A DNA stretch of 64,000 nucleotides from a virus, in IMG/VR virus record IMGVR_UViG_3300029554_000001. One strand, 5' to 3'. The notes below the pieces were generated by a model. That model saw nothing but the letters and a program-made list of their open reading frames with translations. It ran no database searches and was not told the origin of the DNA. The translations under genes and the position numbers were made by a program. This document shows, piece by piece, positions 5,476 to 26,919 of this stretch (the first letter of the stretch is position 1; every line of letters starts with the position of its first letter).

Positions 5476-5691
5476 ATGTATATTCCAAAAAGTGATAGAT
5501 AGATATCTTTACTTCCTTTTACTGGTTGTGATGAAAAGAAATGCCCATGGAAGGATTGTGTAAGACATCCTGAAAGTGGATTTACATATAATTCTATAGG
5601 GCATTTATCTTATCTTTGTAAAAAATTTAAAGAAGCCCCAAAAGAAGTTGAAGAAGTAAAGGAGAAAGAAACAAAAACAAATGATTCTTAA
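5476..5691 (+). CDS. hypothetical protein (71 codons) with in-frame TAG at 5500-5502
   Basis: AGGAGA-4 nt-ATG; the frame is open to TAA 5689-5691 except for a single TAG (codon 9). It fills an otherwise empty 230-nt gap. Confidence 0.5.
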
Positions 5692-6043
5692 AATTATTAT
5701 TAGCCTTTGGCGATTTGTTTTTATTTTAGATGTTTTGGTTTTCTTTTATCTTGTTAAAGAGATTACCAAATATGTAAACGACTTTTTTAATGCAAGGAAT
5801 ATTGATATTAAACTTTCCAGTGCTGGTACTGGTTCTGCAATGTCAATCATTCAAATTCTTATTCTAAGTGCTCTTCCAATCATTAATATTATTTTAGGTT
5901 GGACATGGATATTTAATTACGAAAAATTTATGAAATTAGCTTGCATTAAACTTAACAATCACATTCACAAGATGGGGTTAATTTCTGATGAATTAAAAGA
6001 TGAATTTTATTATAAAGTAATTAAAGATTTTGAAGGGTCTTAA
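5681..6043 (+). CDS. membrane protein (120 aa)
   Basis: ORF with two or three hydrophobic segments; overlaps the end of the previous gene. Confidence 0.55.
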   Translation: MILKIIISLWRFVFILDVLVFFYLVKEITKYVNDFFNARNIDIKLSSAGTGSAMSIIQILILSALPIINIILGWTWIFNYEKFMKLACIKLNNHIHKMGLISDELKDEFYYKVIKDFEGS

Positions 6044-6048
6044 TTGAT

Positions 6049-6537
6049 ATGAAAATTGAAAAAGAAACAATTCCTGCCCAAGAAAAAACATATTGGGTTG
6101 CAGAAGACGGTCGTAGATTCTCTACCGAAGAAGAATGTTTTGCTTATGAAAAAAGAGAAAGTATTCGTGATGTGATGAGGGAGCGTTTATTTTTGATTCC
6201 TAATCTTTACGAAGATGAAAAAGAATATTGGTTTATCATGGGTGAAGAAGCTACTCCTACTTATCTTATTAGTTATATCGAATATTTTTTAAGAATTTAT
6301 ATTAGCTCTTGGCAAAAAAAGACTTTGGCTCAAGCTTGCTTAGAACAGAAAAAAGACCAGAAGTATTATCTTATTGGATTGAAAATTGATAATGGCGGAG
6401 ATAATACTACTTTTGAAGTTCTTAATATTGATTCCGCAGAGGAAGAAACAAAAGAAGCTATCGCCGATTACGAAACAATCTTGAAAGAATATTCTGCTCT
6501 CAGAGAAAGACTTTCTATTTTCCCCGAAATAAATTAA
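6049..6537 (+). CDS. hypothetical protein (162 aa)
   Basis: ORF on the dominant strand, tight spacing to its neighbour. Confidence 0.65.
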   Translation: MKIEKETIPAQEKTYWVAEDGRRFSTEEECFAYEKRESIRDVMRERLFLIPNLYEDEKEYWFIMGEEATPTYLISYIEYFLRIYISSWQKKTLAQACLEQKKDQKYYLIGLKIDNGGDNTTFEVLNIDSAEEETKEAIADYETILKEYSALRERLSIFPEIN

Positions 6538-6544
6538 TAAATAC

Positions 6545-6573
6545 TTGACAACTCCTTTTGTGTCTGATATACT
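6545..6573 (+). promoter_or_regulatory. sigma70-like promoter
   Basis: TTGACA-N17-TATACT. Confidence 0.6.
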
Positions 6574-6613
6574 TTAATCATAAAGTAAATCGTTCTTGAA
6601 AGGGGTTGTTTAA

Positions 6614-6952
6614 ATGTATAATCGTAATTTTCATAATAAGATTGGTTCGGACAAAATCAAACTCACTTTCCACTCTCGTGACCGTGGCTTGGAAAGATTG
6701 GGTATTAAGAATGAAAGAGAGCTTCGTCAGTTAGCTTGTAATGCTCGTAACAAAGGTATCAATCTTGATGCCGTAACTATTTACAACTACGAAAAGATTG
6801 GGCTAACCAATGAGGAAATGTATACTTTTAAGCGTCGTTTTCGTACTAAGTCTAACAGTGAACGTATTTATTACCATAAAGGCTTTGTCTTTGTATTTGC
6901 TGGTAAAAATGCTTGTACACTTAAAACTGTAATCGAATTAAAAAATATTTGA
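6614..6952 (+). CDS. hypothetical protein (112 aa)
   Basis: ORF + SD AAAGGGG downstream of the promoter at 6545. Confidence 0.6.
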   Translation: MYNRNFHNKIGSDKIKLTFHSRDRGLERLGIKNERELRQLACNARNKGINLDAVTIYNYEKIGLTNEEMYTFKRRFRTKSNSERIYYHKGFVFVFAGKNACTLKTVIELKNI

Positions 6953-6961
6953 GGTGGTATT

Positions 6962-7366
6962 ATGATTTATAACGCTGGAGTTAACGGAAAAGAAAATAAA
7001 ACTGTTACCTACTATCCCGTTTTTGTGGTTGAATTTAACCAGTATAAGTGCGTTTACTATATCGAACGAAATATTTTTCATTTTGTTTTCAACTATTTCT
7101 TTGCTCAAGATTGTGAAGCGGACAATATTCTTTGCGCTCATTCCGCAGGAGGGGCGTTGGCATTTATTGGAGAATTTAAAGCTGACCCTAATAGCGAAAG
7201 ATTAATTAATAATTTTGTCAAAGCTGTTAAATCATACAACAATCCCTGTTCTAGTCCTAATGCCCCTCAATATCTCGACCACTATTTTTCTATTGTTCGA
7301 GATGAGCGTATTTTTAATCTTGCCCTAATGGATAATAAATATCGCACTTCCCCTGAAAACTTTTAA
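6962..7366 (+). CDS. hypothetical protein (134 aa)
   Basis: ORF + SD GAGGTGG. Confidence 0.6.
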   Translation: MIYNAGVNGKENKTVTYYPVFVVEFNQYKCVYYIERNIFHFVFNYFFAQDCEADNILCAHSAGGALAFIGEFKADPNSERLINNFVKAVKSYNNPCSSPNAPQYLDHYFSIVRDERIFNLALMDNKYRTSPENF

Positions 7367-7377
7367 GGAGGTTTAAC

Positions 7378-7887
7378 ATGGATAACTATGAAGCTATGAA
7401 GCCTTGGGAGCACGGAAAGATTGTTGAAATTCATCATGATATTAAGTCTATTTCTGTGTATCCTGTCGTTTATGAAAACAAAGATTTTTATGTCTGTCGA
7501 GTATCAGGTTCTACAGAAATAATTACAATTAGAAAAAATTCTTATCAAAATTATGTCTTTGAATCTTACGAAAAGTATATGAGTTGGAGACGAAACAACC
7601 CTCTTGCTAGTCTTAATAGCAGACATTTCTTTGTATATATCCCCAAGGATGAGAAAATTTCTTTCGCTGATAATTTTCCTGTTAGAGATTCTCTTGATGA
7701 AGCATTGGCTAAAGCTGAACACGCTTATGATGAAGAGGAGAAAACTTTTAAGCGTTTGCAAACCAGCTTTGAATATTATGCCAATAGAGTTGAAGACACA
7801 AAAGAAACTTTAAGACAGAAAAAGTCACGTATTGAAAATATTAAGGCTCAAATTGCGGAAAGGGATAAGAATAAAAATGGTATTTAA
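7378..7887 (+). CDS. hypothetical protein with C-terminal coiled-coil-like region (169 aa)
   Basis: ORF + SD AAGGAGG. Confidence 0.65.
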   Translation: MDNYEAMKPWEHGKIVEIHHDIKSISVYPVVYENKDFYVCRVSGSTEIITIRKNSYQNYVFESYEKYMSWRRNNPLASLNSRHFFVYIPKDEKISFADNFPVRDSLDEALAKAEHAYDEEEKTFKRLQTSFEYYANRVEDTKETLRQKKSRIENIKAQIAERDKNKNGI

Positions 7888-8209
7888 TATTACTGATAAC
7901 GGTCTTGCTCATTCTAATATGGAAACCTATTACTGCATTGGTATTCCTAGAAAGAAGCTTCCTCTTAACTATGGTGAATCACCTTCTTATGGTTTCGCTA
8001 ATAGAGGTTGGGCAAATATCCCTTATCTCATTGCAGAACAATTTACTCTTTCCTGTTATTCTTTTGATACCGAAAAAGATGCTAAGGAATGGTGGAGTAA
8101 GAACAAGAAGTTTTTCCTTGAAAACAAAACTTATACCAAGGAATATGACTTTAATTATGCGAAGATTATCAAGGTAGAAATTGGTAGTAAGTATACTATC
8201 ATGCATTAA
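7877..8209 (+). CDS. hypothetical protein (110 aa)
   Basis: Track ORF 7832.. begins at TTG; the first ATG (7877) overlaps the end of the upstream gene. Confidence 0.55.
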   Translation: MVFNITDNGLAHSNMETYYCIGIPRKKLPLNYGESPSYGFANRGWANIPYLIAEQFTLSCYSFDTEKDAKEWWSKNKKFFLENKTYTKEYDFNYAKIIKVEIGSKYTIMH

Positions 8210-8220
8210 AGGAGATTAAT

Positions 8221-8616
8221 ATGCTTCCTCTTAAGAATCACCCTGCTTACTATATTACTATTAATGCTAATCGAGATTCTGAAATTAAGACTCTTTTTGC
8301 AGGAGAAGATTATCTTGGTCTTGCTGGTTTCTTTGTTGATTTCGATAAGGCGAGACGTTTTAGCTGTCCTCTTTCAGCAGAAAAGTGGTTTAAATTCCAT
8401 TTTGATGATGAAACCCTTCCTCCTGCTTATTATGACTGGACAAGTATTACTATTGAAGAGCTTAAACTTGTTCCTGTTATGAACATCTATCTTTCTAAAG
8501 AAGAGACGGTTTCAAATTCTGTAACTCTTGAAACCACTACAAAGCGAGAAAAGCCTAAGCGTACTTATAAGAAGAAAAAGGTGGAAGATAAAATCGACAC
8601 CATTCCCGATACCTAA
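8221..8616 (+). CDS. hypothetical protein (131 aa)
   Basis: ORF + SD AAAGGAG. Confidence 0.6.
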   Translation: MLPLKNHPAYYITINANRDSEIKTLFAGEDYLGLAGFFVDFDKARRFSCPLSAEKWFKFHFDDETLPPAYYDWTSITIEELKLVPVMNIYLSKEETVSNSVTLETTTKREKPKRTYKKKKVEDKIDTIPDT

Positions 8617-8642
8617 TTCATAAAAATTTAACAACTTAAATA

Positions 8643-8671
8643 TTGACAGATATTCTTTCTTATGCTAAACT
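8643..8671 (+). promoter_or_regulatory. sigma70-like promoter
   Basis: TTGACA-N17-TAAACT. A 9-bp inverted repeat GACAGATAT/ATATCTGTC brackets it. Confidence 0.5.
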
Positions 8672-8747
8672 AATCATAGAAAAGGATATCTGTCCTTTAT
8701 TTTAATTTAAATAAATCTGTTGAAATACACAGAAGAATGGAGATAAT

Positions 8748-9779
8748 ATGGCAACTGTTTAGTATCATTATGGTAAAAATAATTCTTTGCTTCGTTGGTA
8801 TCATCCTATTGTAAGAGGCGTGACTTATAATAATGTGGTGGTAATTGATTGGCCTAAAAGCGAATTAAAGAGCGCAAGTATTGATATCTGTACTCAACCA
8901 AAGCTAAGTCCAGAAAAAATGTATAACCTTTATGGCTATAAGCCTGATATTGTAACAAATGCTTTCTTCTTTGATACTGCTAGCGGAACTTCTATCTGGA
9001 ATTTAAAAAGTAATAACACTGTTTATGCCAAGGATGGCAATTTCTCTAATGGCTGGGGTATTACAAATTCTGGAAAGATTATGAATGGCGTATTTAACAA
9101 TGGCGTTGGTTGGAGAGATTTTGGCACAGAATATCCTGCTTTGTTTAAAAATAAGCAGCCTCAATCTGTAAAAAACTATGCTGACATTGACTATGAAGCT
9201 AAAAGACAGATGTTCGGTTGGACAAAGACAGATGGCAATCCTAAGAATGAAAAGTATTTTATTGTTTCTGTTGTGTCTGGTGGTATGAAACTTTCCACTG
9301 CTCAAAACCTTATTAAATCTCTTTTCCCTGATGTAGACTATTGTTGCAATCAAGATGGTGGGAATTCTACTTATACAAACTTTGAAGGAAAACGCCTTTC
9401 TGCATCTGGTTGGTTAAGACCTGTTGATTCTATTCTCGCTTTCTGGCTTCGCTCTAACGCTGAAAGAGAAAAAGCAGAAACAGAAGAAAAGAAGCAAGAT
9501 AAGGCTAACAAGAAAGAAGAAAATCGTCCTAAGAAAACTGGTTATCGTTGTCAGTTAGGAGCTTTTAGTAATTCAACTCGCGCAATTACTTATAGAAATG
9601 AAATTAGAACTCTTACTGGCGTAATTGATTATTCAACTGCTTTTTGTATTCAAGACCCAAAAACTAAGCTCTATAAAGTTCAAGTAGGATTCTTTGCTAA
9701 AAAATCTGGTGCTGAAAAGGTTAAGGCAGATTTAGCTGAAAAGGGATATAATTGTTATATCTGCTATGTGGAGGAATAA
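8748..9779 (+). CDS. phosphodiester-glycosidase (NAGPA)-like domain + C-terminal SPOR domain protein; putative peptidoglycan-binding hydrolase; in-frame TAG at 8760-8762
   Basis: GGAG-5 nt-ATG at 8748; the frame joins track ORF 8787.. through TAG (codon 5). NAFFFD and NQDGGNST motifs (NAGPA-like). C-terminal YRCQLGAF...YKVQVGFF looks SPOR-like. Confidence 0.6.
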
Positions 9780-10156
9780 TGAAAATTTTTGATACTTGTC
9801 TTAAAATTGAAGAAATTTTAAAAGGTTATCTTATAGCTTCTAATAAAACAAACGACAAAAAGAAATCTGAATATTATAAACATGAAGCTTACAGGTTAAA
9901 TTTTACTACGAGAGAACTTGATTTATTTTATAACTGGGGCTTTTCTAATCTTATTTATGTACCCCATCTAAATCATTGGGCTTGTGTAATGCCTAAAGAC
10001 TATAAATATCTTAATTCTACTTCTTACCCCTATTCCAAAGAAGACCCTCCTATTATCTTTGTAAGTGGTAATGTTGATAGTGTATTAGATGAATATTTAA
10101 GCGAATTAGATGAATATTTAAACGAGGAAAAAAATAATGAACGAGAAAAAGTATGA
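9779..10156 (+). CDS. hypothetical protein (125 aa)
   Basis: TAATG overlap with the previous stop; the track start 9752 has no SD. Confidence 0.55.
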   Translation: MKIFDTCLKIEEILKGYLIASNKTNDKKKSEYYKHEAYRLNFTTRELDLFYNWGFSNLIYVPHLNHWACVMPKDYKYLNSTSYPYSKEDPPIIFVSGNVDSVLDEYLSELDEYLNEEKNNEREKV

Positions 10157-10442
10157 AGTAATTTCTGATATTACCTCTCCTATTGATTAGGAGATTGCAG
10201 ATTTTATTCAGCGTATTATTGACCAAGATGAAACTCTGGCTACTTTAACTGATACTTTCTTTATCAGTTATGACTATGAATATGAAAATGTTTATATTTG
10301 TACTACTTATCCACAATATTTAACTGTAATTAATCACCAGCTTTTTAAAGATTTATGTGATATAATTAATGAATATTACGGATTTTCTGTCTTTGTTAGA
10401 AAAATTGATTCAATTATTAGCATTAAATCTAAGGAAAACTAA
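10137..10442 (+). CDS. hypothetical protein (101 codons) with in-frame TAG at 10188-10190
   Basis: GAGGA-8 nt-ATG; open to TAA 10440-10442 apart from one TAG (codon 18). It fills a 365-nt gap in the ORF track. Confidence 0.5.
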
Positions 10443-10462
10443 CAATTTAATTTAATAAATAG

Positions 10463-10491
10463 TTGACAACACCTCTCTTTTATGGTATATT
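10463..10491 (+). promoter_or_regulatory. sigma70-like promoter
   Basis: TTGACA-N17-TATATT. Confidence 0.6.
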
Positions 10492-10521
10492 AAACATACT
10501 AAAAAAAAGAGAGGTGTTTTT

Positions 10522-11082
10522 ATGTTTGAAATTTTGTATATTATTAGCGGATTCTCTTTTATTGTATTTGTTATATTTGCTTTTTGTCTTACTCGTATTG
10601 TTTATAAAGATGAAGATGATGGATATAAAAACACAATAATTGATTGGATTAAAGAATATCACAAAGATTGGCGTAGTTGGACGCATTTAAAGTTTAACGA
10701 ATGGAAAAAATATTATATTTTAGCTCCTGATGAATGGAGATTAGCATGGTTTGCTCCCAAGCGAACTATTAGAGATAAACACGGAATTTGGGATACAATT
10801 TATATTAATTTTGGTTTTATTGGAAATATTAGATATGTCCTTTTTAAGCATAACATGGAAAATAGGCGCAGAAAGAATAAAGCTGCTCAAAGTTCTCAAG
10901 ATAATTTAAGATATGTTCTCGAAGCTGTTCAAGGAGATATTAATAAAATCCAAAAGAAAGCCGAAGAGGAAATCAATAAAGCCAAAGAAGAAACAGATAA
11001 GATTCGAGAATCTTATTTGAACGAAGAATCTTATTTAAATAAAGAAATTGAATTAAAATCTACTGATAAATGGGAGAATTGA
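10522..11082 (+). CDS. N-terminally membrane-anchored protein, paralogue of 11084-11722
   Basis: ORF + SD AGAGGTG. Shares YI(N/D)FGFIGN and LE(A/S)xQ(G/D)DI...EEEINKA with the next gene. Confidence 0.65.
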   Translation: MFEILYIISGFSFIVFVIFAFCLTRIVYKDEDDGYKNTIIDWIKEYHKDWRSWTHLKFNEWKKYYILAPDEWRLAWFAPKRTIRDKHGIWDTIYINFGFIGNIRYVLFKHNMENRRRKNKAAQSSQDNLRYVLEAVQGDINKIQKKAEEEINKAKEETDKIRESYLNEESYLNKEIELKSTDKWEN

Positions 11083-11083
11083 T

Positions 11084-11722
11084 ATGCCGCTATTAAAAAT
11101 TGCTCTGGTTTTACTTCTTGTTACTTTGATTGTATTTGCTATTTGGTTTCTTTGGTATCTTTTGCTTGGTCCACTTATTCTTAAAGGAATCTTTAAGGCT
11201 GATTTAGATGATATCAATGAAAAGCGCAAGCGGGAAGAATGTACCAAAATGGATTTTGATAAATGGTACGACATCTATTGTTTAAATACTAAAAAATGGG
11301 GTTTAGGTTGTCTTCCGCATTGCAGAATTGGCAAACATAATTACAAACAGGGAGATGTAGTAGTCCTTAGCAAACACTGGGACTTAGATTCTTTTTGTAC
11401 TAAAGATATTTATGTAGATTTTGGATTTATTGGTAATCTAAAATATTCTTTATGGAGACACAAATATCTTAAATCTAAAGAAACCAGAGAAACCCAAGAA
11501 AAAGAAGTAGAAAATCTCAGACTTATTCTTGAAAGCGCCCAAGATGATATTGAGATTCTTAAAAAGCAATCCGAAGAAGAAATTAATAAAGCAGCAGAAA
11601 CCTCTAAAAAAGTCAAAGCGAATCTTGACAAACAGGAATTACGTTGGTATCATAACACTTTTACGGGAAAAGATATTGTTGCCCCTGTAAAAATGCAAAC
11701 AGAAGCCGAAGTAGATTTTTAA
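11084..11722 (+). CDS. N-terminally membrane-anchored protein, paralogue of 10522-11082
   Basis: ORF + SD GGGAGA; conserved blocks shared with the upstream gene. Confidence 0.65.
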   Translation: MPLLKIALVLLLVTLIVFAIWFLWYLLLGPLILKGIFKADLDDINEKRKREECTKMDFDKWYDIYCLNTKKWGLGCLPHCRIGKHNYKQGDVVVLSKHWDLDSFCTKDIYVDFGFIGNLKYSLWRHKYLKSKETRETQEKEVENLRLILESAQDDIEILKKQSEEEINKAAETSKKVKANLDKQELRWYHNTFTGKDIVAPVKMQTEAEVDF

Positions 11723-11769
11723 ATAAAATATTTCCTTTATTTAGTTAAAAATTCTAAGGAGAATAATTA

Positions 11770-12991: not shown

Positions 12992-12995
12992 ATAC

Positions 12996-17629: not shown

Positions 17630-17869
17630 ATGGAATGGTTTGATTTTGACAAGAAAAGACCTCATATTGGCGAAGAAATTTTCGTAATGCAAAGATTTTT
17701 TAATTACACCAAAATATTTATTGCTACTTATTTAGGAAGAGAAAGAACAGAAATTGAAGAAATATACGATGTTAAATTAGACAATTTCAAAAAATATTTT
17801 CAAGAAGATTATTCAAGCCCATATCATTCTTTTTTATCTTCCTGTTTACGTTGGGCGAGATTATATTAA
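17630..17869 (+). CDS. hypothetical protein, tandem paralogue 2 of 3
   Basis: MEWFDFDKKRPHIGEEIFV...RWARLY. Confidence 0.55.
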   Translation: MEWFDFDKKRPHIGEEIFVMQRFFNYTKIFIATYLGRERTEIEEIYDVKLDNFKKYFQEDYSSPYHSFLSSCLRWARLY

Positions 17870-17885: not shown

Positions 17886-18149
17886 ATGGAATGGTATAGT
17901 TTTGAAGATAGATAGCCACGTATCGGAGAAGAAGTTCTTATACTTGAAGATATTCGATTTACGGATGAAATTTTTGGTGGAAACTACGAAGTTTATTCAG
18001 CAATATTCCAAGGCAAAAAATTTGATTATTACGCAGATGAATATTTGATAACTTTAAGTAATTTTAAATCCTATCCTGACAAGTATCCTTGGGATTTTTC
18101 TCCTCGTGAGATTGATATAAATTTTGTTTTTTGGGCAAGATTGCATTGA
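17886..18149 (+). CDS. hypothetical protein, tandem paralogue 3 of 3, with in-frame TAG at 17913-17915
   Basis: MEWYSFEDR[TAG]PRIGEEVLI...FWARLH. Similarity to the two upstream paralogues continues across the TAG (codon 10); TGA stop. Confidence 0.6.
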
Positions 18150-19950: not shown

Positions 19951-20813
19951 TGGAAAATAAAACAATTACTTATGGGAATATTAGAAAACAATTTGCCTCT
20001 TTCTTAAAGATTCTTGTTGACATTCCTTTTAATTCTTTCTTTGACAATGAAAAGATTTGCCCTGATAAATTTGCTGTATTATTTAATTATCTTGAACCAA
20101 CTCTTCCAATGCTTCCTTATATTACCATGCTCAGAACTGAAAATCCAGATGTAACTGTTCCATTTTTCGTGAATAATCCTTTCTTTGACTATAAAAAGAA
20201 CAAAGATGGATTAAAAATAATTAAATTTAACTCTTGGGTTGGTTATTATGCTGAAATGAACACTTCTTTTAATGCAGATTTCATTGTTAAAAACGACGCC
20301 ATTAAAAATTATAGCCTAATGTATAAATATCTCAAGACTTTAAAAAATTGTGTCTCAATTATAGATGATTTTTTTCTTATGCTTGATGCACCAAAAAATT
20401 ATCTTAATCCTATTTATAAAAGTATTTCTGCAAAAACTATTAAGGTTTTAAATGAATTAATGGAATTTTATGGTAATTATATCTTGGTAAAAAAGAAGGG
20501 TGTAAGTCAGTATACAGCAAACAATAGGATTTATATTCATAACACTCAACCAGACACCCAAATTATTTATAATCCTTTTGTCCCTGTTACAGCCGTTGGT
20601 ACTAATAATCCTCTCTTCCCTGTTACAGCCGATTTAACTCTTGCTAGAGGTGGAGAAGAAACTAATTTGTTTGAAACCATTCCTCGCATTAATAATATTG
20701 CCGCTGAAATCATTGGGTGGAGAGAAATTGAAGGAGAATTTGACAGAACTTTGCGTGATAATGCTCATAGAACTGTTGCAAAATGTACTGAATTATTGAG
20801 GACAGCTACATGA
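19950..20813 (+). CDS. hypothetical protein (287 aa)
   Basis: TAATG coupling to the upstream gene. Confidence 0.65.
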   Translation: MENKTITYGNIRKQFASFLKILVDIPFNSFFDNEKICPDKFAVLFNYLEPTLPMLPYITMLRTENPDVTVPFFVNNPFFDYKKNKDGLKIIKFNSWVGYYAEMNTSFNADFIVKNDAIKNYSLMYKYLKTLKNCVSIIDDFFLMLDAPKNYLNPIYKSISAKTIKVLNELMEFYGNYILVKKKGVSQYTANNRIYIHNTQPDTQIIYNPFVPVTAVGTNNPLFPVTADLTLARGGEETNLFETIPRINNIAAEIIGWREIEGEFDRTLRDNAHRTVAKCTELLRTAT

Positions 20814-21634
20814 TTTGTTTAGATATGTATGGTATGGATGAATATCAAACTGAAAAGGCTAAAATTCTTTCTAAAGGAGAAAAGCCTAACAGACATAATA
20901 TTGTCCAATTTATTGCGGCTATGACTTGCTTAGTTAAGGATTTGGAAAAGGTAGATTTTGGAGAAGCAGTTTATAAAAAACCTAAGAGTAAAAATGATTG
21001 GATGATTCTTTGGAATATTTCTAAAAAATTTGATGTTATCCTTGAATATTACAATGAGTTGATTGTATGGCAACCAAGTTGGCTTGTGTCTCTTGTAAGT
21101 GATGCTTCATTATGGAATGCAAAAACAGGTGGAAAGCTGCCACAACCTTTTACTTATCTTAATGATGGTGCATCTTACAACAACCTATTAAATGGTAAAT
21201 CTTTCCATATTACTTGGTCTAGTATTATCGAAAGAAAAACATTTTTTGAAGAAAATGAGGTTGTTATTACTCAAGCATTTGAACGCGCATTAAACGGTAA
21301 AAACAAAAATTGTAACAATTATTTTGGAAGTTTAGGATTTTATATTACTCGTCATTGGCACGATTTACAATTTGCATTTGCTTTTTTAGATTATTTAACA
21401 ATTCGTATTACTTTTGATAAATATGAAAAAGAATCTTGTATTTGGCGCACCTTAAACCAACATAATATTATAAATAATCCAGAAAATTGTGATGAAATAA
21501 GACAAACAGTGGTTACAATTCACAAACTTCATTTGTCTATTAATGCAGTTAATTCAATATTAAATTTCAATTCTAATTCTATTGCTACCGAAAAAGAAAG
21601 AGTACATAATAATTATTATAATTACTGGATTTAA
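20810..21634 (+). CDS. hypothetical protein (274 aa)
   Basis: ATGA coupling to the upstream gene. Confidence 0.65.
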   Translation: MICLDMYGMDEYQTEKAKILSKGEKPNRHNIVQFIAAMTCLVKDLEKVDFGEAVYKKPKSKNDWMILWNISKKFDVILEYYNELIVWQPSWLVSLVSDASLWNAKTGGKLPQPFTYLNDGASYNNLLNGKSFHITWSSIIERKTFFEENEVVITQAFERALNGKNKNCNNYFGSLGFYITRHWHDLQFAFAFLDYLTIRITFDKYEKESCIWRTLNQHNIINNPENCDEIRQTVVTIHKLHLSINAVNSILNFNSNSIATEKERVHNNYYNYWI

Positions 21635-21665
21635 AATAAATTAATTTAAAAAGGAGATAACTATA

Positions 21666-22106
21666 ATGCCTAAATCTCGTATGGCACGCAATTTCAAAGC
21701 TCGAAAGGGAGCTTCTCTTAATTACACACTTCTTGCTCGTCAAAAGGAATTTCCTAAGTTGACTTGTAAGAAGAATCTTCCCACTCCTGATACTAAAGAT
21801 AGTGATAATCCTAATAATGTCAAGTACATTCTCAAGGAAAATGATACTCAATGTGCTATCTTCTCTACAGAGCTTAAGTCTCAAGATAATCACAAAGACC
21901 CTCTTTATTTGATTGTGGGTGCTCTTACTGGTGCTCTTCTTCTTACTGACAAGGAAATTGAAGAGTATTTTGATTTGACTCCTATGATTGATAAGAAGCT
22001 TACTCTTAAGGATGCTCCTTATAAGAACACTGGTGTTAAGATTGAGTACGACACCAATGATATTCCTACAGACATTGTTGATTTTAAGGGTACTCCTATT
22101 AAGTAA
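21666..22106 (+). CDS. hypothetical protein (146 aa)
   Basis: ORF + SD AAAGGAG. Confidence 0.6.
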   Translation: MPKSRMARNFKARKGASLNYTLLARQKEFPKLTCKKNLPTPDTKDSDNPNNVKYILKENDTQCAIFSTELKSQDNHKDPLYLIVGALTGALLLTDKEIEEYFDLTPMIDKKLTLKDAPYKNTGVKIEYDTNDIPTDIVDFKGTPIK

Positions 22107-22117
22107 AGGAGAATAAT

Positions 22118-23704
22118 ATGAAAAATAATGATTTCCCCACTAACCCAGTAGCTTTTGCTCAATATGTTTGGGAAAATATTGAAATTAAAGACATATTGGT
22201 TGATAGATTTCACAATTTTTGGAAAGTAACTTCTTATAAAATTTGCAATGGTCGTAAAATAAGAATTGAAATTCGTTGTATTAGTGACTCTGGCACAGAC
22301 TACAAAAATGGAGGTTGCAAAAAATTAACTCGTTATGACCTTGCTAGCAAATATTATTTTTATATTAATAATATTGCTGTTGAGATTCCCGATGTTGAAG
22401 ATTGGAATGCTGGAACTTTCGTTCAAAATTATAATACGCTTTGGTATATTCTTGATACAATGGTTCCCATTACAAAAGAAGAAACATCGGATATGGATGC
22501 TTTGTTTCTTTTAACCCAAGAAGCAGATAAGATTTACGAAGAAAATAACGAAAAAATTTCTACTATCAGGACTTTAAATGAATTAAAAAACAAATTTGAA
22601 AAACGTGATTATTATGATGGAGACAAGATTCGAGAAAAATGTGTTAACTGTCTCCCAAAAGAGGACAAAAAAATGACCGAAAACGAAAAAAATTACTTCC
22701 CTAAAAATAAGGGAAAAACGGGTGTCGATACCCAATTAAAATCCGCATTTTATTCGCAGGAAGAACTCGATGAAGCCATCAGAAAAATTGATGACTTCCT
22801 TGAAACCCATGCAAATACTGCTAAAAATAAGTGTAAAGAATCTGTTAAGAAATTTACAGACTTCTCCGACAAGGATTTGGATGAGATTTGTACACGAGTG
22901 GTGGACACTTTTTATTCGGCCTCTGATTTTTCTAAGAAAGCCTTTTGTGATTTTAGAAATTGGTGGAGAGAAAACCATAAAGATGATGAAGTTAAGGTAA
23001 AAGAATCTAAAAAAGAACCCGAAAATAAAACGGAAACTCTTAAAGTAAACAATAATTCTGTTATTACCGTTGATAATAATGAGGTTGATACTAAAAAGAA
23101 TAAAGTTAACAACACTGATGTAGAAAAGCCTAAGCCTGTCTTTAAGCTCGGTGATGTTGTCTATACTAAGGGAGAATCTGTTGGCTATATTTCTCGTATT
23201 GGATATACTGATAGATATTGTTATTATTATTGGACACCAATTATCATTTCTTCTAATGACAAGACACTTAAGGATGAAGAAATTGGCTTAACTTATCCTT
23301 ATGAAACCCATTACAAGCGTATTGGTAACTATCTTATGTCTGACCTTAATTGCGTTAAGAAAATGGCTCGTATTGATTCTGTTTATAAGTTAAGTGAAGA
23401 TAATCTTAAAAAGTTCCCTTATCTTGATAAGTATATAACCGACTTTGAAAATAATGAAAAAGATAATAACACACCTACAACAGATAGTGCAACACCTCCA
23501 CTCAGCAGAAAAACTGTTAATGCTAATTCACTCCCTAATTATCTTAATAAGCTTAATCTTACTGATTCTGCTTATCTTTGTGAAAGCAATACTGGTTTAA
23601 CTCATGCTAACGCATTAAAACTGAATGATGTTATTGATTCTCTTAATAGTATTATTCATTATCTTCAAGAAGAAGAGCGTAGAAGACAATTTGAAGAAAG
23701 ATAA
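22118..23704 (+). CDS. hypothetical protein (528 aa)
   Basis: Longest plus-strand ORF; SD AAAGGAG; followed by an intrinsic terminator. Confidence 0.7.
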   Translation: MKNNDFPTNPVAFAQYVWENIEIKDILVDRFHNFWKVTSYKICNGRKIRIEIRCISDSGTDYKNGGCKKLTRYDLASKYYFYINNIAVEIPDVEDWNAGTFVQNYNTLWYILDTMVPITKEETSDMDALFLLTQEADKIYEENNEKISTIRTLNELKNKFEKRDYYDGDKIREKCVNCLPKEDKKMTENEKNYFPKNKGKTGVDTQLKSAFYSQEELDEAIRKIDDFLETHANTAKNKCKESVKKFTDFSDKDLDEICTRVVDTFYSASDFSKKAFCDFRNWWRENHKDDEVKVKESKKEPENKTETLKVNNNSVITVDNNEVDTKKNKVNNTDVEKPKPVFKLGDVVYTKGESVGYISRIGYTDRYCYYYWTPIIISSNDKTLKDEEIGLTYPYETHYKRIGNYLMSDLNCVKKMARIDSVYKLSEDNLKKFPYLDKYITDFENNEKDNNTPTTDSATPPLSRKTVNANSLPNYLNKLNLTDSAYLCESNTGLTHANALKLNDVIDSLNSIIHYLQEEERRRQFEER

Positions 23705-23740
23705 TATGTAATTCAGTTAAATAATAACAAAAAATAACAA

Positions 23741-23770
23741 AAGAAGAGTCATTTTGGCTCTTCTTTTTTT
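23741..23770 (+). terminator. intrinsic terminator
   Basis: AAGAAGAG-loop-CTCTTCTT followed by T6. Confidence 0.6.
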
Positions 23771-23779
23771 ATTAAATAC

Positions 23780-23808
23780 TTGACTTCTGGTTTGCAATTT
23801 GCTATACT
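23780..23808 (+). promoter_or_regulatory. sigma70-like promoter
   Basis: TTGACT-N17-TATACT. Confidence 0.55.
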
Positions 23809-23840
23809 GTAAATACAAAGAAGAAAAGGAATGGTAATTT

Positions 23841-24110
23841 ATGACTTATTACGTTATTAAGTTTGTTTGGAAGGATTATCGCAACTTCGTTCAGACCACT
23901 TATGCTGGTTATAATTATAATATTTATCATAATTGGGGACCTTCTTTTTATTGTGACTTCAATGAAGCTGAAAAATTTGACAGTGTTGAAGCAGCTAAGA
24001 ATTTTTACGAAAAGTATAGTAGTTACTTTAAGGTTTCTATTGAAAGAGAAGATTCTTCTGTTTATATTTCCAAAATCGTTATTAACACAGAAGACGTGGA
24101 AAAAATTTAA
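23841..24110 (+). CDS. hypothetical protein (89 aa)
   Basis: ORF + SD AAAGGA after the promoter at 23780. Weak resemblance to 24126-24452 (YY(V/I)I...EEAK). Confidence 0.55.
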   Translation: MTYYVIKFVWKDYRNFVQTTYAGYNYNIYHNWGPSFYCDFNEAEKFDSVEAAKNFYEKYSSYFKVSIEREDSSVYISKIVINTEDVEKI

Positions 24111-24125
24111 AGGAGATTAAACATT

Positions 24126-24452
24126 GTGAAGAAGTCTTATTACATTATTAGAGTTACTCGTTCTGGAAAAAGCCTTTTTCATGGTAAAAAATATATCGGT
24201 GTTACTGAACATCTTGATAATACATCTACTTATTATTCTTTTGCTTCTGTTGACCAAGCTGTAAGATTTTCTACTTTAGAAGAAGCTAAAAATTGCTTAA
24301 TTAAAAATAAAAAAGACCTCTTTAACCCTGATGCTTTAACCTATCTTTATATTGAATCTATTGAGATTCTTCATATTGTTTACACAGAAGACATAGAAAG
24401 TGTATTTCATGGACTTCACTGTTTGGAAGATACTACTATCTGGATTAATTAA
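24126..24452 (+). CDS. hypothetical protein (108 aa, GTG start)
   Basis: AAAGGAG-10 nt-GTG; followed by the terminator at 24465-24509. Confidence 0.55.
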   Translation: MKKSYYIIRVTRSGKSLFHGKKYIGVTEHLDNTSTYYSFASVDQAVRFSTLEEAKNCLIKNKKDLFNPDALTYLYIESIEILHIVYTEDIESVFHGLHCLEDTTIWIN

Positions 24453-24464
24453 ATAACCTATTTT

Positions 24465-24509
24465 AAACTTGTTTATTTCATATCGGATAAACAAGTTTAT
24501 TTTTGTTTT
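24465..24509 (+). terminator. intrinsic terminator
   Basis: AAACTTGTTTAT-10 nt loop-ATAAACAAGTTT followed by ATTTTTGTTTT. Confidence 0.65.
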
Positions 24510-24532
24510 AAAATTTATTTTTGAAAAAGTGC

Positions 24533-24561
24533 TTGACAAGTTGACTGAGGTGTGTTATAAT
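24533..24561 (+). promoter_or_regulatory. sigma70-like promoter ahead of the GIY-YIG gene
   Basis: TTGACA-N17-TATAAT, TGT extension. Confidence 0.65.
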
Positions 24562-24602
24562 GTATATGGATTAATAGAATATTAAAGAAAGGAGATATTA
24601 TT

Positions 24603-25568
24603 TTGAAAGAATTTCAAGAATTTAAAGATTTAGAATAGTTTTATTTAAAAGCACAAGAAATATTTAAAGATAGAAAAAGAGTGGATAGTTACAAAGAAAT
24701 GTGTGAGCTTTTAGATGAACCTTATTATGCTTCACCTTCTCGCAAAGAGCGTCAAAAAATACAATTTACTACTTGGAAAAAATGTTTTACATGGCGCAAA
24801 TCAAAATAGAAGTTTATTAATATTAAAATGATTCCAAAAGAAATTTTTGACGAAAATCTTTAGGAATTAAAAAATAAACGAGAAGAAAAATCAAAAGCGC
24901 AATCTGAAAAAACTCTTCAAAATTATATTAAAAATTATAAACTTAATCATTTATTAACTGGAAGATGGCCTTCTCGTCCCTGCTCTTGGGATAAGAGAGG
25001 TGTATATATAGTTTATAATAAATCTAACAAAAATTCCTACAAAGGTCCTGTTTGTTATATCGGTAGTACTGCTATCGCTTTTTATAAAAGATTTAATAGT
25101 CATTTAAGCCCTTCTCAAACTATGTCTCAAGAAATAAGAGATTTAATGGAAGAGAAAGATACTCATATTAATTTTTTATGGTTCGCTCCTGATGATGCAA
25201 CAGAAGATGAAATACATGAGAAAGAAGCCGAGTTCTGGTCTATATATCAGAAAAAAGGATATCATATGCTTAATAAGCATATTCCTCAATATCATAGAAC
25301 TTTAAAAAATCCTAATAAAAAGAAAATTGCTCCCCATGGTTCTTATTTAACTGACGAAGATTGGATTAAATATAAAAAGATTAGTGCGAAAATTCCTTCT
25401 GATAAGATTCCTCTTTTAATTAAATTCTTGCAAAAAGATTTAAAATTAGAATTTTCAGAAGATTTTAATATGTGGACTGAACCTAATATGATTCCCAAAA
25501 TACAAAAGTTTGTTGAAGAAAATAAAAAGAAAGTGGAAATACGAGAGGTTGATAAAGATGACGAATAA
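24603..25568 (+). CDS. GIY-YIG homing-endonuclease-like protein with three in-frame TAGs (24636, 24807, 24861)
   Basis: AAAGGAGA-7 nt-TTG. GVYIVYN...CYIGST...R...E...N pattern (GIY-YIG) lies at 24996-25260. There is no ATG/GTG/TTG between TAG 24861 and the motif, so the catalytic domain can only be reached by reading through TAG. Confidence 0.6.
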
Positions 25569-26919
25569 TTAGCTTTATAGAAAATGCCAATAGAAATTAA
25601 AGGATGTTACAGAAGTAGAATCTTATAAAGCTATGTGTGCTTTATTAAACGAAGAATATTTCAAATATAAAAAAAGTAAAGATAGATAGCTTGAAGTTTG
25701 GAAAACTTGTTTTAGCTACGATTTACTTAAAAGTGGTAAGTTTATCAATATTAGACTTCTTTCAGAGTCAGAACATTTCCAGACTCTTACGGAACTGTTT
25801 AAAACAGATTCCATTTCTTACTCCCTTTGTGGCTTACTTAATCAATATAGTGATGAAACAAACGAAAGTATTGTTTATATAACTAAATCTGAATTAGCTT
25901 TTTGCTTAGGATTTTTTAATGAATCTTATAGCGCAGTAAAAAAATATCCTGAAATGTATTCTTATCAAGTTGAAAATGATATTTTAGCCCTTCGAAATAG
26001 CCGATATCCATTTATTAAAGAACATAAAGATTCTATTAAAGGTTGGAGAAAAGTAAAAAAAAATTCTTCTAAACCATCTAATGATACTCTTCAAAAAGTA
26101 GAAGATTTTACTACCCATTATTCATCTAATTATGAATATAAGGTCGAAAATGCTTTAAAGAACCTTGCTGATAGTGGTTATATTACTTTACATGAAGTCT
26201 ATATGGGTGCTTTTATTGATGATAACTTTAACTGGATTCCTAATATAGATAATATTTCAAATAAAGATGGTAGATATTACTTTAAAAGTGATGAAACAAC
26301 TACTTTAGTTATTCCTTATAAGGATAGAGAACTTACACCAGAAGAAGAAGTTAAATATATTCAAATTACCAATGAAATTTTCAGACAAATGAATCTTGAT
26401 GGAATTCAAGATGTTTTTAAACAAAATAAACAACTTAAATTTAGACAACAATTATTTCCTCAATTACTTTCTAACATGGGATGTTTATATATTTATAAAG
26501 CATACCGTATCGGATTTTCTTCTGAACATATTGGAGATAAAGAAACAAAAGTTAAAACTAAATTGCAATCTACTTTTGATATAGCTTCTTTAAAGAAAGC
26601 ATTAGCAGATAATAATAGTACAGCTACTAAAGCTAATCTTAAAAATGCCCAAAAACGTATTGAAGATAATATTTCTTCTAAGCATACTTTAGGTAATACT
26701 TTATCTGAAAGTCAAAAATTAGAACAAGAATATTCTACTTTTATATTAAAAAAGTTATCAAAAGAATTGCTTAATATAGATGTTGATTCCTATTTTCCTT
26801 CTACTTCTGATTCTTCTAATGCAATTCAATTCATTAATTCAAAGAAAAAAGCTATTTTTAATAATAGTTTACGACGTTTAAATAATAAAAGATAGTATGA
26901 TGAAAAATCTCAAAAATAA
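25558..26919 (+). CDS. hypothetical protein (453 codons) sharing an N-terminal module with the GIY-YIG gene; in-frame TAGs at 25570, 25591, 25687, 26893
   Basis: GAGAGG-9 nt-ATG. The frame joins track ORF 25954-26895. N-terminal YK(A/E)MC(A/E)LL...W K x CF...KFINI is shared with 24603-25568. If TAG is sense, the end moves to TAA 26917-26919. Confidence 0.5.

Follow-up and report, generated by a model that had tools for sequence, protein, structure and literature searches.

TAG-containing genes of the window

The 64,000-nucleotide stretch of viral DNA analyzed here (the window) is part of a Firmicutes-type jumbo phage of ~215 kb from the human gut, a distant relative of SPbeta whose RNA polymerase is YonO-like. 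Our analysis covered ~103 of the 215 kb of this lineage. Six longer genes in the window contain in-frame TAG codons and are listed with a promoter, a negative control, and a doubtful case.

5476-5691, plus strand: g5476, 71 codons; TAG at codon 9 (5500-5502); AGGAG 5 nt before the ATG
8748-9779, plus strand: g8748, 343 codons; NAGPA-like plus SPOR, putative cell-wall-binding hydrolase; TAG at codon 5 (8760-8762)
10137-10442, plus strand: g10137, 101 codons; TAG at codon 18 (10188-10190)
17886-18149, plus strand: g17886, 87 codons; TAG at codon 10 (17913-17915); the upstream gene ends at 17869, before the start
24533-24561, plus strand: consensus sigma-70-type promoter (TTGACA-17-TATAAT) before g24603
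24603-25568, plus strand: g24603, TTG start; GIY-YIG homing-endonuclease-like; TAGs at codons 12, 69, and 87
25558-26919, plus strand: g25558, 453 codons; N-terminal domain paralogous with that of g24603; TAGs at codons 5, 12, 44, and 446
27636-28739, plus strand: TnpB gene (IS605-family), negative control; in-frame TAG at 27624-27626
31842-32444, plus strand: g31842, doubtful, 200 codons; TAGs at codons 5 and 11; ATG right after the second TAG; weak Shine-Dalgarno (SD) motif

All eleven TAG positions that a preliminary description had given for the six genes were re-derived from the sequence and are exact. One of the eleven, codon 446 of g25558, probably ends translation, and a TAA follows 7 codons on as backup. 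The product assignments of the preliminary description also held. The SPOR domain of g8748 was recovered with Pfam (E = 2e-12), and homologues carry PF09992 (NAGPA) plus PF05036 and have the N-terminus in common across the TAG position. This N-terminus (M-A-T-V-#-Y-H-Y-G-K-N-N-S-L-L, where # is TAG) can be aligned with homologues to as low as 45% identity. The GIY-YIG domain of g24603 corresponds to PF01541 (E = 8.7e-5), and the peptides of the short ORFs described below are hydrophobic. For TnpB, we rejected the TAG as a sense codon: the HTH_OrfB_IS605 model begins at position 1 (MFKTYKYRLYP), and the TAG lies upstream of the true start.

TAG as a glutamine codon

Judged from sequence comparison, TAG is a sense codon in this phage and is read as glutamine, because it swaps with CAG or CAA in orthologues, is nearly absent as a terminator, and is matched by a tRNA(CUA) in relatives. 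At most three of 136 genes could be TAG-terminated, with a backup TAA 5-7 codons on (21 for one doubtful ORF). Gln and TAG exchange at codon 37 of a gene just left of the window and, between strains, within one short ORF. TAG makes up ~6% (5.9%) of Gln-type codons in the genome region.

The evidence for the suppressor tRNA comes from contigs of close relatives rather than from that of the window. In 10 of 14 related strains it closes a tRNA array located ~19 kb to the left of the window, and an eleventh strain has a tRNA(CUA) with an insertion in the anticodon loop. The Gln-like tRNA(CUA) has U1:U72, G73, and an encoded CCA, and it resembles the phage's own tRNA-Gln(UUG). Six different tRNA bodies occupy this locus among near-identical strains, one of them unrelated and not Gln-like. 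The 25 genes adjoining the array contain no TAGs. The array lies on the plus strand, in the same orientation as the genes to its right, and those of these genes that fall in the window have host-type promoters.

A family of ATG-TAG mini-ORFs

The nine short ORFs that had been described in the minus-strand block with TAG as codon 2 were all found; each is an SD-ATG-TAG site, with ATGs at 62584, 62131, 61912, 60522, 58765, 57538, 52228, 52024, and 43192. A further SD-ATG-TAG ORF, of 4 codons, lies at 37307.

43112-43192, minus strand: SD-ATG-TAG mini-ORF, 26 codons, M#KIKQINYRFNVYYSVIVLTGFMEV
51953-52024, minus strand: SD-ATG-TAG mini-ORF, 23 codons; second TAG internal
52148-52228, minus strand: SD-ATG-TAG mini-ORF, 26 codons; second TAG internal
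57467-57538, minus strand: SD-ATG-TAG mini-ORF, 23 codons, M#KILHVDMDRQISVVRIVYHRN; an internal Gln is TAG in one strain
58694-58765, minus strand: SD-ATG-TAG mini-ORF, 23 codons, M#KILAVDYYWSIIIVFIIYNRN
60367-60522, minus strand: SD-ATG-TAG ORF, 51 codons; TAGs at codons 2, 17, and 36
61123-61197, minus strand: family member with AAG at codon 2 (MKKIIS...)
61838-61912, minus strand: family member, codon 2 is TAG
62057-62131, minus strand: family member, codon 2 is TAG
62510-62584, minus strand: family member, codon 2 is TAG
32498-32578, plus strand: SD-ATG-TAG mini-ORF outside the minus-strand family, M#IHFG#GVQFLDSCVKFLVWYEIKA
43022, 51852, 57369, 58614, 60290, 61035, 61763, and 62418 (first hexamers), plus strand: eight near-consensus TG-extended sigma-70-type promoters
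52290-52321, 57602-57630, 61256-61283, and 62650-62673, plus strand: terminators
62457-62486, 61797-61824, 61075-61102, 58646-58677, 52097-52124, and 51891-51916, minus strand: conserved 13-bp hairpin, apex G-U-[RUAG]-G-C

The mini-ORF family comprises about ten copies, each of which is the first ORF ahead of a gene. Its peptides do not reach the length of a usual membrane helix, and comparison with Pfam and Rfam gave no sequence match to any family. Of the distinct peptides, 51 have TAG at codon 2, 7 have AAG, and 2 have AGT; none has CAA or CAG. Differences among family members fall on the three codon positions in the ratio 44:17:58, with pN/pS = 0.25. By this measure the reading frames behind the codon-2 TAG are under purifying selection, so the mini-ORFs would be translated when TAG is decoded.

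Each of the eight plus-strand promoters is directed back across a mini-ORF. Based on these promoters and the plus-strand terminators, we predict cis-antisense RNAs of roughly 230 nt, or ~440 nt where one unit covers both the 52024 and 52228 ORFs. The 13-bp hairpin lies between the mini-ORF and its antisense promoter and shows compensatory changes in 8 of 13 pairs (RNAalifold).

Positional bias of TAG

Of the 11 TAGs in the window, seven lie in codons 2-20, where 1.08 would be expected (p = 5.5e-6, with a threshold picked after the data had been seen). With 19 kb of flanks included, the count is 10 of 32 against 2.7 expected (p = 1e-4); the early-TAG excess in the flanks taken alone was without significance. 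The 20-codon threshold is that of the preliminary description, and TAG numbers are small. Its statement that TAG is not placed like a random sense codon was borne out by comparison with CAA and CAG over 136 genes: early positions account for 34% of TAGs but 9.8% of CAA and 9.5% of CAG codons (Fisher p = 1.4e-4), and TAG tops all codons in enrichment within codons 2-20. At the same threshold, three diverged sister species gave 10 of 40 against 3.05 expected (p = 4e-4), and the unrelated code-15 phage phAss-1 showed a weaker bias (15 of 107 against 7.8 expected, p = 0.009). Standard-code phages have their in-frame TAGs mainly near 3' ends, with few 5' cases.

TAGs fade gradually along genes with no sharp stop, and 4 of 32 in the window plus flanks lie past 55% of gene length. 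No 5' bias is seen in TAG-rich genes, namely homing-endonuclease-like genes, structural genes of phAss-1, and a DUF4379 gene with 11 TAGs that lies just outside the window on the left. Of the translational gate proposed earlier, the recoding and a non-random, apparently selected 5' placement stand, but TAG-rich genes have their TAGs spread along the gene.

Conservation of early TAGs

All ten 5' TAGs of window genes are constant in strains down to ~85% nucleotide identity. The TAG of g5476 is unchanged in 9 of 9 strain variants although adjoining residues vary, and those of g8748 and g10137 are constant in 8 and 10 strain variants, respectively. In the 60367-60522 ORF, all three TAGs are constant between strains despite seven residue differences. 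Several mid-gene TAGs, in contrast, become Gln, Gly, Arg, or Trp codons between strains. In g24603 of strain L054, codon 12 is still TAG, whereas codon 69 encodes Gly, codon 87 encodes Gln, and one new TAG is present. Between the paralogues, TAG codon 5 of g25558 aligns with TAG codon 12 of g24603, and TAG codon 44 of g25558 aligns with a Gln.

The YonO-like RNA polymerase gene, outside the window, has exactly one early TAG per lineage, at codon 52 or codon 41. The exchange is reciprocal (ADS-Q-...-ITG-# versus ADS-#-...-ITG-Q), and both TAGs sit at true Gln positions in a well-conserved block (SLADSQMLKSIRDITGQ). The TAG of a 348-aa protein has shifted likewise: three lineages have it at codon 3, a fourth at codon 12.

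The 5' placement of TAG is non-random and looks selected. Selection for TAG itself is suggested because codon 2 of the mini-ORFs is never CAA or CAG, because 5' TAGs stay constant across strains while several mid-gene TAGs drift, and because the single early TAG shifts site in the polymerase and 348-aa genes. In the relative L030 (83% protein and 79% nucleotide identity for g8748), the g8748 site is CAG; in its g10137 orthologue, protein similarity spans the TAG, with Lys opposite. These two sites are thus either young or dispensable.

Alternative explanations

Early TAGs could be an annotation artefact if true starts lay downstream and the TAGs were in-frame leader stops or ends of short upstream ORFs. 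The TnpB TAG, 3 codons upstream of the true start, is such a case, g31842 has an ATG directly after its second TAG, and public gene calls err the opposite way for the polymerase (ATG start, TAG at codon 11). For the six longer genes, however, the starts upstream of the TAGs hold up. All six have an SD motif of 4-6 nt (GGAG, GAGG, AGGAG, AAGGA, or AAGGAG) 5-10 nt before the start. No ATG, GTG, or TTG occurs within 40 codons downstream of the last TAG in g5476, g10137, g17886, and one flank gene; the N-terminus of g8748 is conserved across its TAG, as are the paralogues g24603 and g25558 across theirs. Starts were called with our own simple gene caller, and TGA or TAA pseudo-recoded as sense served as the control. 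The same caller placed a 5' TGA in 0 of 14 affected genes and a 5' TAA in 4 of 80, with an SD never longer than GAGG. Since pseudo-recoding yields almost no 5' cases, the 5' TAGs are not a start-calling artefact; the scarcity of 5' TAGs in standard-code phages also speaks against one. This reading, which the preliminary description had named as one that would overturn it, is largely refuted already and barely credible.

Three further explanations accept the starts. Rare codons might gather at gene starts generally, because of a translational ramp or because mRNA structure is avoided around the start, with TAG following suit. Rare GC-rich codons are indeed somewhat enriched in codons 2-20 (CCG 23%, ACC 21%, baseline 11%), but TAG is enriched most (34%) while CAA and CAG, for the same amino acid, stand at 9.5-9.8%. 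A ramp would account neither for a paralogous family with TAG precisely at codon 2 nor for site turnover that preserves one TAG, and we consider it very improbable. Tolerance of ambiguous decoding, under which TAG survives only at permissive positions such as N-terminal tails because the tRNA varies by strain and one type may insert another amino acid, is also very improbable. The six tRNA(CUA) bodies at one locus and the Glu, Lys, Gly, Arg, or Trp found opposite TAG at some sites fit it; yet C-terminal tails, which should be just as permissive, are not enriched in TAG apart from two or three likely stops, and the polymerase TAGs occupy true Gln positions. The more serious contender, although still unlikely, is cost minimization with no regulation: suppression would be incomplete, each TAG would cost the cell the peptide made up to it, weak purifying selection would purge late TAGs faster, and early ones would be the least damaging leftovers of drift (CAG to TAG). 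The lability of mid-gene TAGs and their exchange with Gln codons, the CAG at the g8748 site in a relative, the gradual fade along genes, and the equal cost logic cited for UUA codons (PMC10732093) all agree with it. It leaves unexplained the codon-2 TAG, never CAA or CAG, in about ten diverged paralogous mini-ORFs, the one early TAG with a moving site in the polymerase and the 348-aa protein, and the persistence of 5' TAGs where neighboring codons changed between strains.

Comparison with known systems

The prfB gene for RF2 contains an early in-frame UGA and is autoregulatory, with escape by +1 frameshifting stimulated by an internal SD. In the phage, as in prfB, an early in-frame stop would sense the cell's termination or decoding state; prfB senses a release factor and frameshifts, whereas here escape would come from a suppressor tRNA, with no need for frameshifting. 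The early stop of prfB as a sensor is also mentioned in work on the bldA tRNA-Leu(UAA) of Streptomyces (PMC10732093), which is the closest analogue. There, UUA is a rare codon read by one dedicated tRNA in a small percentage of genes, with an extreme bias to the start of the coding sequence that is attributed to how little is wasted if the tRNA is missing (PMC10732093); the preliminary argument that a 5'-proximal TAG is the cheapest block had thus already been made for UUA. Ribosomes stall at UUA, a sense codon, whereas at TAG the peptide would be released by RF1. The bldA system belongs to cellular development and leaves the code unchanged; the present one is viral.

In code-15 phages (TAG to Gln, with suppressor tRNAs), regulation of late and lysis genes has been proposed (Borges et al., bioRxiv 10.1101/2021.08.26.457843; Peters et al., PMC9523058; phAss-1, PMC10607447). 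Our phage is like them in reading TAG as Gln, avoiding it as a terminator, encoding tRNA(CUA), and having early genes mostly compatible with the standard code, and the idea of in-frame stops blocking premature translation is common to both. These studies treat which genes or genome blocks carry recoded stops (Borges et al.; PMC9523058; PMC10607447), and word searches of their text found no analysis of within-gene TAG position. Unlike the code-15 descriptions, TAG is sparse and 5'-concentrated here, the RNA polymerase would be gated, and there is an ATG-TAG mini-ORF family.

Start-stop elements of E. coli, an SD-AUG followed by a stop, were found by Ribo-RET (bioRxiv 10.1101/520783). Read with the standard code of the host, the nine SD-ATG-TAG sites match this definition exactly. 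A pure start-stop is untranslated beyond its stop, whereas here purifying selection (pN/pS = 0.25) acts in frame on the 21-49 codons that follow the TAG. Type I toxin-antitoxin systems of Firmicutes prophages, such as bsrG/SR4 and yonT/SR6 of SPbeta, pair a small hydrophobic peptide with a cis-antisense RNA. The mini-ORFs resemble them as small hydrophobic peptide genes under a convergent cis-antisense RNA, predicted here, with a strong promoter. Unlike type I systems, the family has about ten copies, each the first ORF ahead of a gene, its peptides fall short of a usual membrane helix in length and match no Pfam or Rfam family, and translation would require TAG decoding.

A proposed suppressor-dependent gate

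We favor, as the best and a reasonably probable reading of the sequence, that the early TAG is a gene-specific, suppressor-dependent translational gate or throttle. TAG has been cleared from stop positions and is read as glutamine by the phage's Gln-like tRNA(CUA). Where it remains, it lies mostly in the first ~20 codons of a minority of genes, the first ~50 of the polymerase, and codon 2 of the 23-26-codon ORFs. With host RF1 unopposed, ribosomes would terminate after a few codons, wasting almost nothing and leaving no long truncated product; full-length protein would follow when mature, charged phage tRNA becomes available. We infer the competition with RF1, any delay in suppression, and the benefit of withholding these products. 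Suppression may begin very early because the array shares its orientation with genes that have host-type promoters, if it is transcribed alike; that would leave little room for a timed gate, and early TAGs may then act as a constant throttle instead.

The gate would act gene by gene inside polycistronic transcripts. The most interesting candidate is the YonO-like RNA polymerase: a consensus host-type promoter closely precedes the block of two genes that includes it, and its expression would need TAG decoding. With neighbors of the tRNA array free of TAG and the polymerase dependent on TAG decoding, the phage may have a cascade.

Genomic setting

A 215,558-bp contig from a human-gut metagenome (ENA ERZ920262, k127_15581) encodes one protein of the window, and the same genes recur on many near-identical contigs of 209-224 kb. 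The window itself (64 kb, 33% G+C) is without a tRNA gene; its genes are plus-strand as far as ~36.2 kb and minus-strand from there on. We lengthened the sequence to 82.7 kb by way of proteins near both window ends, and relatives added ~20 kb further left; the sequence covered came to ~103 kb of the lineage and ~70 kb from sister species. Exact-protein look-ups returned near-identical contigs only, and hence no divergence, and a scan with the family alignment of g8748 as the query found no relatives of intermediate distance (g8748 and the five other longer TAG-bearing genes of the window are named by start coordinate). No GenBank phage matched 46 kb of the window in a megablast search, and PHROGs and Pfam scans of the larger window genes gave mostly unknown functions. 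The relatives of the phage RNA polymerase, together with strong SD sites, point to a probable Firmicutes host; the one other hint is a 67%-identical match on a contig in a genome bin of an uncultured Clostridium sp.

TAG is read as a sense codon

The preliminary description took in-frame TAG to be a sense codon, and this was upheld by Gln/TAG exchanges, by the near-absence of TAG as a terminator and by a tRNA(CUA) in related strains. As in genetic code 15, TAG stands at Gln-codon positions of relatives. Codon 5 of g8748 is TAG here and CAG in a relative, a flank gene has either TAG or Gln at codon 37 depending on the strain, the interior of one mini-ORF reads RQIS or R#IS between versions (# denotes an in-frame TAG), and the polymerase shows a reciprocal Gln/TAG exchange at two positions. 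Terminator use of TAG is also as low as expected of code 15: TAG could be the final stop in no more than 3 of 136 genes, all backed by a TAA a few codons on, and treating TAA or TGA as sense exposes ~80 and 14 genes, respectively, with 3'-terminal stops of those kinds. In the 67-codon ORF at L002 7494-7697 (window coordinates -1904 to -1701), a second strain has a TAA stop opposite the TAG at codon 62. TAG is therefore still a terminator in this ORF, with a TAA backup five codons on. The TAG at codon 446 of g25558 appears to be arranged likewise.

Related strains carry an array of 13-16 tRNA genes 19-29 kb left of the window. In 10 of 14 of them, ARAGORN and Rfam placed a tRNA(CUA) at the array end, directly after tRNA-Arg(UCU), which supplies the phage-encoded CUA anticodon typical of code 15. 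Five tRNA(CUA) variants have U1:U72, G73 and an encoded CCA, as in the phage's own tRNA-Gln(UUG); the sixth has an unrelated body that is not Gln-like and is without an encoded CCA. True absence of the suppressor was ruled out for one of the four strains in which it had gone undetected: L121 has the gene, missed by ARAGORN and split directly after the anticodon by a ~233-nt insertion, which had no Rfam group I intron match at gathering score. In strain L119, the suppressor site holds an interrupted tRNA of another identity. The anticodon-loop insertion hints that, in some strains, the suppressor would need an additional maturation step.

The suppressor is hyper-variable among otherwise near-identical strains, and other array tRNAs are interrupted as well. 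The tRNA insertion of L119 bears a GIY-YIG endonuclease ORF, itself with in-frame TAGs.

Variable and interrupted tRNAs of the array
L120-L132, positions ~9700-9900 (~19 kb left of window start): suppressor, six bodies
L119 8550-10000: interrupted tRNA, Rfam matches spanning 120-160 nt
L121 3682-3803 and 9268-9400: interrupted tRNAs, matches as for L119
L131 7572-7728 and 8223-8355: interrupted tRNAs, matches as for L119

Starts of the TAG-bearing genes lie upstream of the TAGs

The codon positions reported for the in-frame TAGs were all correct on re-derivation, and the starts upstream of them held up. An SD motif of 4-6 nt (GGAG, GAGG, AGGAG, AAGGA or AAGGAG) is located 5-10 nt before the start in 6/6 genes. 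For g5476, g10137 and g17886, no other ATG, GTG or TTG is listed within 40 codons downstream of the TAG. A database search with g8748 returned homologues at 35-57% identity, and its N-terminus, MATV#YHYGKNNSLLRWYHP, aligns residue for residue with homologue N-termini such as MAVKYNYGTHNSLLRWYNP. Finally, g24603 and g25558 have paralogous N-terminal domains in which TAG codon 12 of g24603 aligns with TAG codon 5 of g25558, and TAG codon 44 of g25558 lies opposite a Gln of g24603.

The domain common to g24603 (GIY-YIG) and g25558 spans ~70 residues (VxSYKxMCxLL ... GKFINI; window 24603-26919), and it suggests a duplicated DNA-binding module of the homing-endonuclease kind. Both genes lie behind a consensus promoter of their own.

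Start errors were seen in both directions, in the polymerase and in an IS605-family TnpB gene within the phage genome:

27636-28739, plus strand: TnpB gene with OrfB_IS605, Cas12f1-like TNB and HTH domains

The "codon 7" TAG of TnpB was dropped as a 5' case; it lies upstream of the true start and outside the gene, because position 1 of the Pfam model falls on MFKTYKYRLYP. Two doubtful ORFs, g31842 and the ORF at 35911, were left out of the main statistics.

Between public contigs (L003, L010 and L012 versus L002 and L008), the gene calls for this phage disagree, with genes shortened or wrongly started, because the contigs were called under different codes, some of them standard. For example, g8748 is 330 aa in some calls and 343 aa in others, and other genes are split or missing. 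Protein databases therefore hold shortened versions of these genes. These inconsistent calls are also a practical lesson for annotation.

In-frame TAGs are concentrated near gene starts

We called genes over the 82.7 kb with a simple caller that weighed codon log-odds together with SD score and start type. It was run under three pseudo-codes, in which TGA, TAA or TAG was read as sense. Early in-frame stops with convincing SD motifs were largely specific to TAG.

Early in-frame stops under three pseudo-codes
TGA as sense: in-frame TGAs all at or past true gene ends; 0/14 affected genes with TGA in the first 20 codons
TAA as sense: early TAA in 4/80 affected genes, none with an SD longer than GAGG
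TAG as sense: early TAG and recognisable SD in 8/15 genes (SD weak in one); only 2-3 TAGs resemble true stops

The bias was assessed by hypergeometric permutation, with the codons 2-20 threshold taken from the preliminary description.

TAGs in codons 2-20
Window, six genes: 7/11 TAGs, expected 1.08, p = 5.5e-6
Window and flanks: 10/32 TAGs, expected 2.7, p = 1e-4
Window and flanks, by gene: 7/13, expected 2.5, p = 0.004

Codons 2-20 make up 11.3% of all codon positions in the 136 genes. They hold 34% of TAGs compared with 9.8% of CAA and 9.5% of CAG codons (Fisher odds ratio 4.9, p = 1.4e-4), and TAG is the most 5'-concentrated of all codons with at least 20 occurrences. TAG is present in only 15 of the 136 genes; such restriction to a minority of genes, together with a 5' bias, is the rare-codon pattern of tRNA-gated regulation of the bldA type.

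Replication matters here because the threshold came from the preliminary description and the bias was not significant in the flanks alone. In three diverged sister species (~70 kb; 61-70% protein identity), 10/40 TAGs were early against 3.05 expected (p = 4e-4), with a TGA control of 0. The unrelated code-15 phage phAss-1 (OQ749652) had 15/107 early TAGs against 7.8 expected (p = 0.009) and, counted by gene, 15 against 6.9 expected (p = 7e-4); these counts exclude three giant structural genes, and the same caller regained the published 41 TAG-bearing genes. In ~60 loci of distant standard-code phages, in-frame TAGs lay mostly near 3' ends.

The proposed 5' preference of TAG thus stands over the 136 genes, in the sister species and in phAss-1, but not in the flanks alone or in TAG-rich genes, where no 5' bias was found (a DUF4379 gene with 11 TAGs, homing-endonuclease-like genes and phAss-1 structural genes). 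The DUF4379 zinc-ribbon gene (438 codons; L002 4493-5809, window coordinates -4905 to -3589) has its 11 TAGs along its whole length. It is absent in strain L033, so it appears to be a recent insertion, probably mobile, adapted to the recoded code.

Early TAGs are maintained as TAG

Codon 2 of the mini-ORF family, the persistence of 5' TAGs among strains and the turnover of their sites all support selection for TAG itself at 5' positions. An unbiased family scan of all related loci yielded 60 distinct peptides, in which codon 2 was TAG in 51, AAG in 7 (two loci), AGT in 2 and CAA/CAG in 0, yet TAG accounts for just 5.9% of Gln-type codons. In strains down to ~85% nucleotide identity, 10/10 5' TAGs of window genes were kept while neighbouring residues changed. 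Several internal TAGs of the same strains are replaced by codons for Gln, Gly, Arg or Trp, others persist, and TAGs also arise anew.

Early TAGs also persist when their site moves. A 348-aa protein has TAG at codon 3 in three lineages; in the fourth, codon 3 is Glu and TAG is at codon 12. The terminase large subunit has TAG at codon 22, 29 or 51 by lineage, and in a 552-aa protein codon 13 is TAG in four lineages. Retention of one early TAG though the site moves is predicted by a regulatory requirement and not by neutral synonymy.

A TAG-bearing phage RNA polymerase

Immediately beyond the right end of the window is the gene for a single-subunit YonO-like RNA polymerase (Pfam PF05183). The best-matching relatives of this polymerase in GenBank are from Bacillus phage BUCT082 (43% identity), Clostridium phage c-st and Enterocloster phages.

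Polymerase loci
L008 1586-3600 (minus strand of the locus)
L216 460-2340
L218 1179-2927
L221 1124-2878

Every lineage has one in-frame TAG within the conserved N-terminal block of the polymerase, and this TAG occupies one or the other of two Gln positions separated by 11 codons: ...SLADSQMLKSIRDITG#... in the window clade and two sister lineages, and ...SLADS#MLKSIRDITGQ... in the third. The public start (ATG, with TAG at codon 11) would have made this a 5' case, which we rejected; homologues are 41-47 residues longer N-terminally, and translation truly starts at an SD-preceded GTG, so that the TAG is codon 52. Public calls give the polymerase as 569, 579 or 630 aa, with a start too late in all. 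The gene lies in a two-gene block behind a consensus host-type promoter, yet it depends on TAG decoding.

Mini-ORF cassettes of the minus-strand block

The mini-ORFs, short SD-ATG-TAG ORFs of the minus-strand block, encode peptides of 23-26 aa whose core is hydrophobic and beta-branched. Coding constraint is evident past the TAG (pN/pS = 0.25; differences by codon position 44:17:58). The peptides must therefore be produced, which requires TAG reading. Each minus-strand cassette consists, in order, of an SD (AAAGGAG), ATG TAG, 21-24 more codons (49 in one), a stop and a 13-bp hairpin. The hairpin shows compensatory changes in 8 pairs and has the apex G-U-[RUAG]-G-C, and its 5' arm is similar to the SD of the downstream gene. 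The 3' part of the cassette contains an opposite-strand, near-consensus TG-extended promoter aimed back over the hairpin and ORF, followed by the SD and start of a TAG-free gene. The mini-ORF and this gene are 180-400 nt apart, and the leader folds more stably than shuffled sequence (z = -4.2 and -5.4). In four units, a plus-strand terminator lies past the ORF, giving antisense RNAs of ~230 nt (~440 nt for a two-ORF unit), which are predictions from consensus promoters and terminators.

Repeated elements of the block
43000-62700, both strands: each long intergenic region of the minus-strand block is one repeated cassette; ~8 cis-antisense RNAs predicted
48365, 51631 and 57340, minus strand: the only three near-consensus sigma-70-type promoters on this strand of the block
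58880-58930, 60600-60660, 62000-62060 and 62170-62210 (approximate), minus strand: recurring upstream motifs

Own-strand promoters are few, so the phage polymerase may transcribe the minus-strand block. Upstream of several mini-ORFs is the motif CATTGTTA, a hairpin, then ATAGAGTGCTTAG; a second repeated motif, CC-TRTAAA-CTGTT-YAYATAA, precedes others. Each of the two is a possible terminator/promoter pair for a polymerase other than the host's.

Three known arrangements resemble the cassettes. Type I toxin-antitoxin loci have a similar layout, with a small hydrophobic peptide gene and, here, a predicted cis-antisense RNA; the mini-peptides had no Pfam match up to E = 10 and the window no Rfam family at gathering score, so that neither database shows similarity to such loci. 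The layout is also like that of leader-peptide control, with a short ORF in a structured leader before a gene. Start-stop elements share the pattern of SD, start and immediate stop, but the cassettes differ from them in the coding constraint beyond the TAG. It is possible, though we think it improbable, that the SD-ATG-TAG cassettes are code-switch sensors. Under the host code, each would be a start-stop, with its leader untranslated and exposed to polarity or cleavage and to antisense RNA made constitutively from a host-type promoter; reading of codon 2 by the phage suppressor tRNA would then let ribosomes traverse the leader ORF of 23-26 codons and switch on the downstream TAG-free operon. 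More speculatively, the RUAG hairpin apex might act like a T-box and bind the tRNA's anticodon. If the cassettes were such sensors, the whole TAG-free gene block would be coupled to the genetic-code change and, with the TAG-gated polymerase, would form a tRNA-driven developmental cascade.

A model for early TAGs

The preliminary description read early TAGs as a translational gate opened once a suppressor tRNA decodes TAG. This interpretation is partly supported, by the recoding, the positional bias and the selection for TAG. While RF1 is unopposed, translation would end after 1-50 codons; with charged tRNA(CUA) available, ribosomes would read through the TAG. An early TAG would thus be a cheap off state that avoids truncated proteins. 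Plus-strand genes are preceded by consensus TTGACA-17-TATAAT sites, often TG-extended, and within operons with such host-type promoters an early TAG could provide gene-by-gene control. The position of the TAG-dependent polymerase behind a host-type promoter suggests a cascade, in which host polymerase would produce the tRNAs and polymerase mRNA, and the phage polymerase would then transcribe later genes. An early TAG could also act as a constant throttle instead of a timed gate; the sequence fits either.

A functional analogue is found in Streptomyces, where UUA codons read by bldA are strongly biased to CDS starts, with the same cost logic (PMC10732093). In the papers on phage stop recoding that we searched, no treatment of where recoded stops lie within genes turned up. 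The phenomenon is a form of the known stop-codon recoding of phages, and the original observation is confirmed and extended.

The leading idea on phage stop reassignment, that it regulates late or lytic genes, rests mainly on which genes bear recoded stops. Within-gene TAG position is an independent, sequence-only test of regulation. A regulatory stop is expected to occupy the cheapest termination site, to stay TAG without drifting to CAG, and to be replaceable by another early TAG; all three are seen in this phage. Its TAG-bearing RNA polymerase and its family of ATG-TAG mini-ORFs make the gate hypothesis directly testable.
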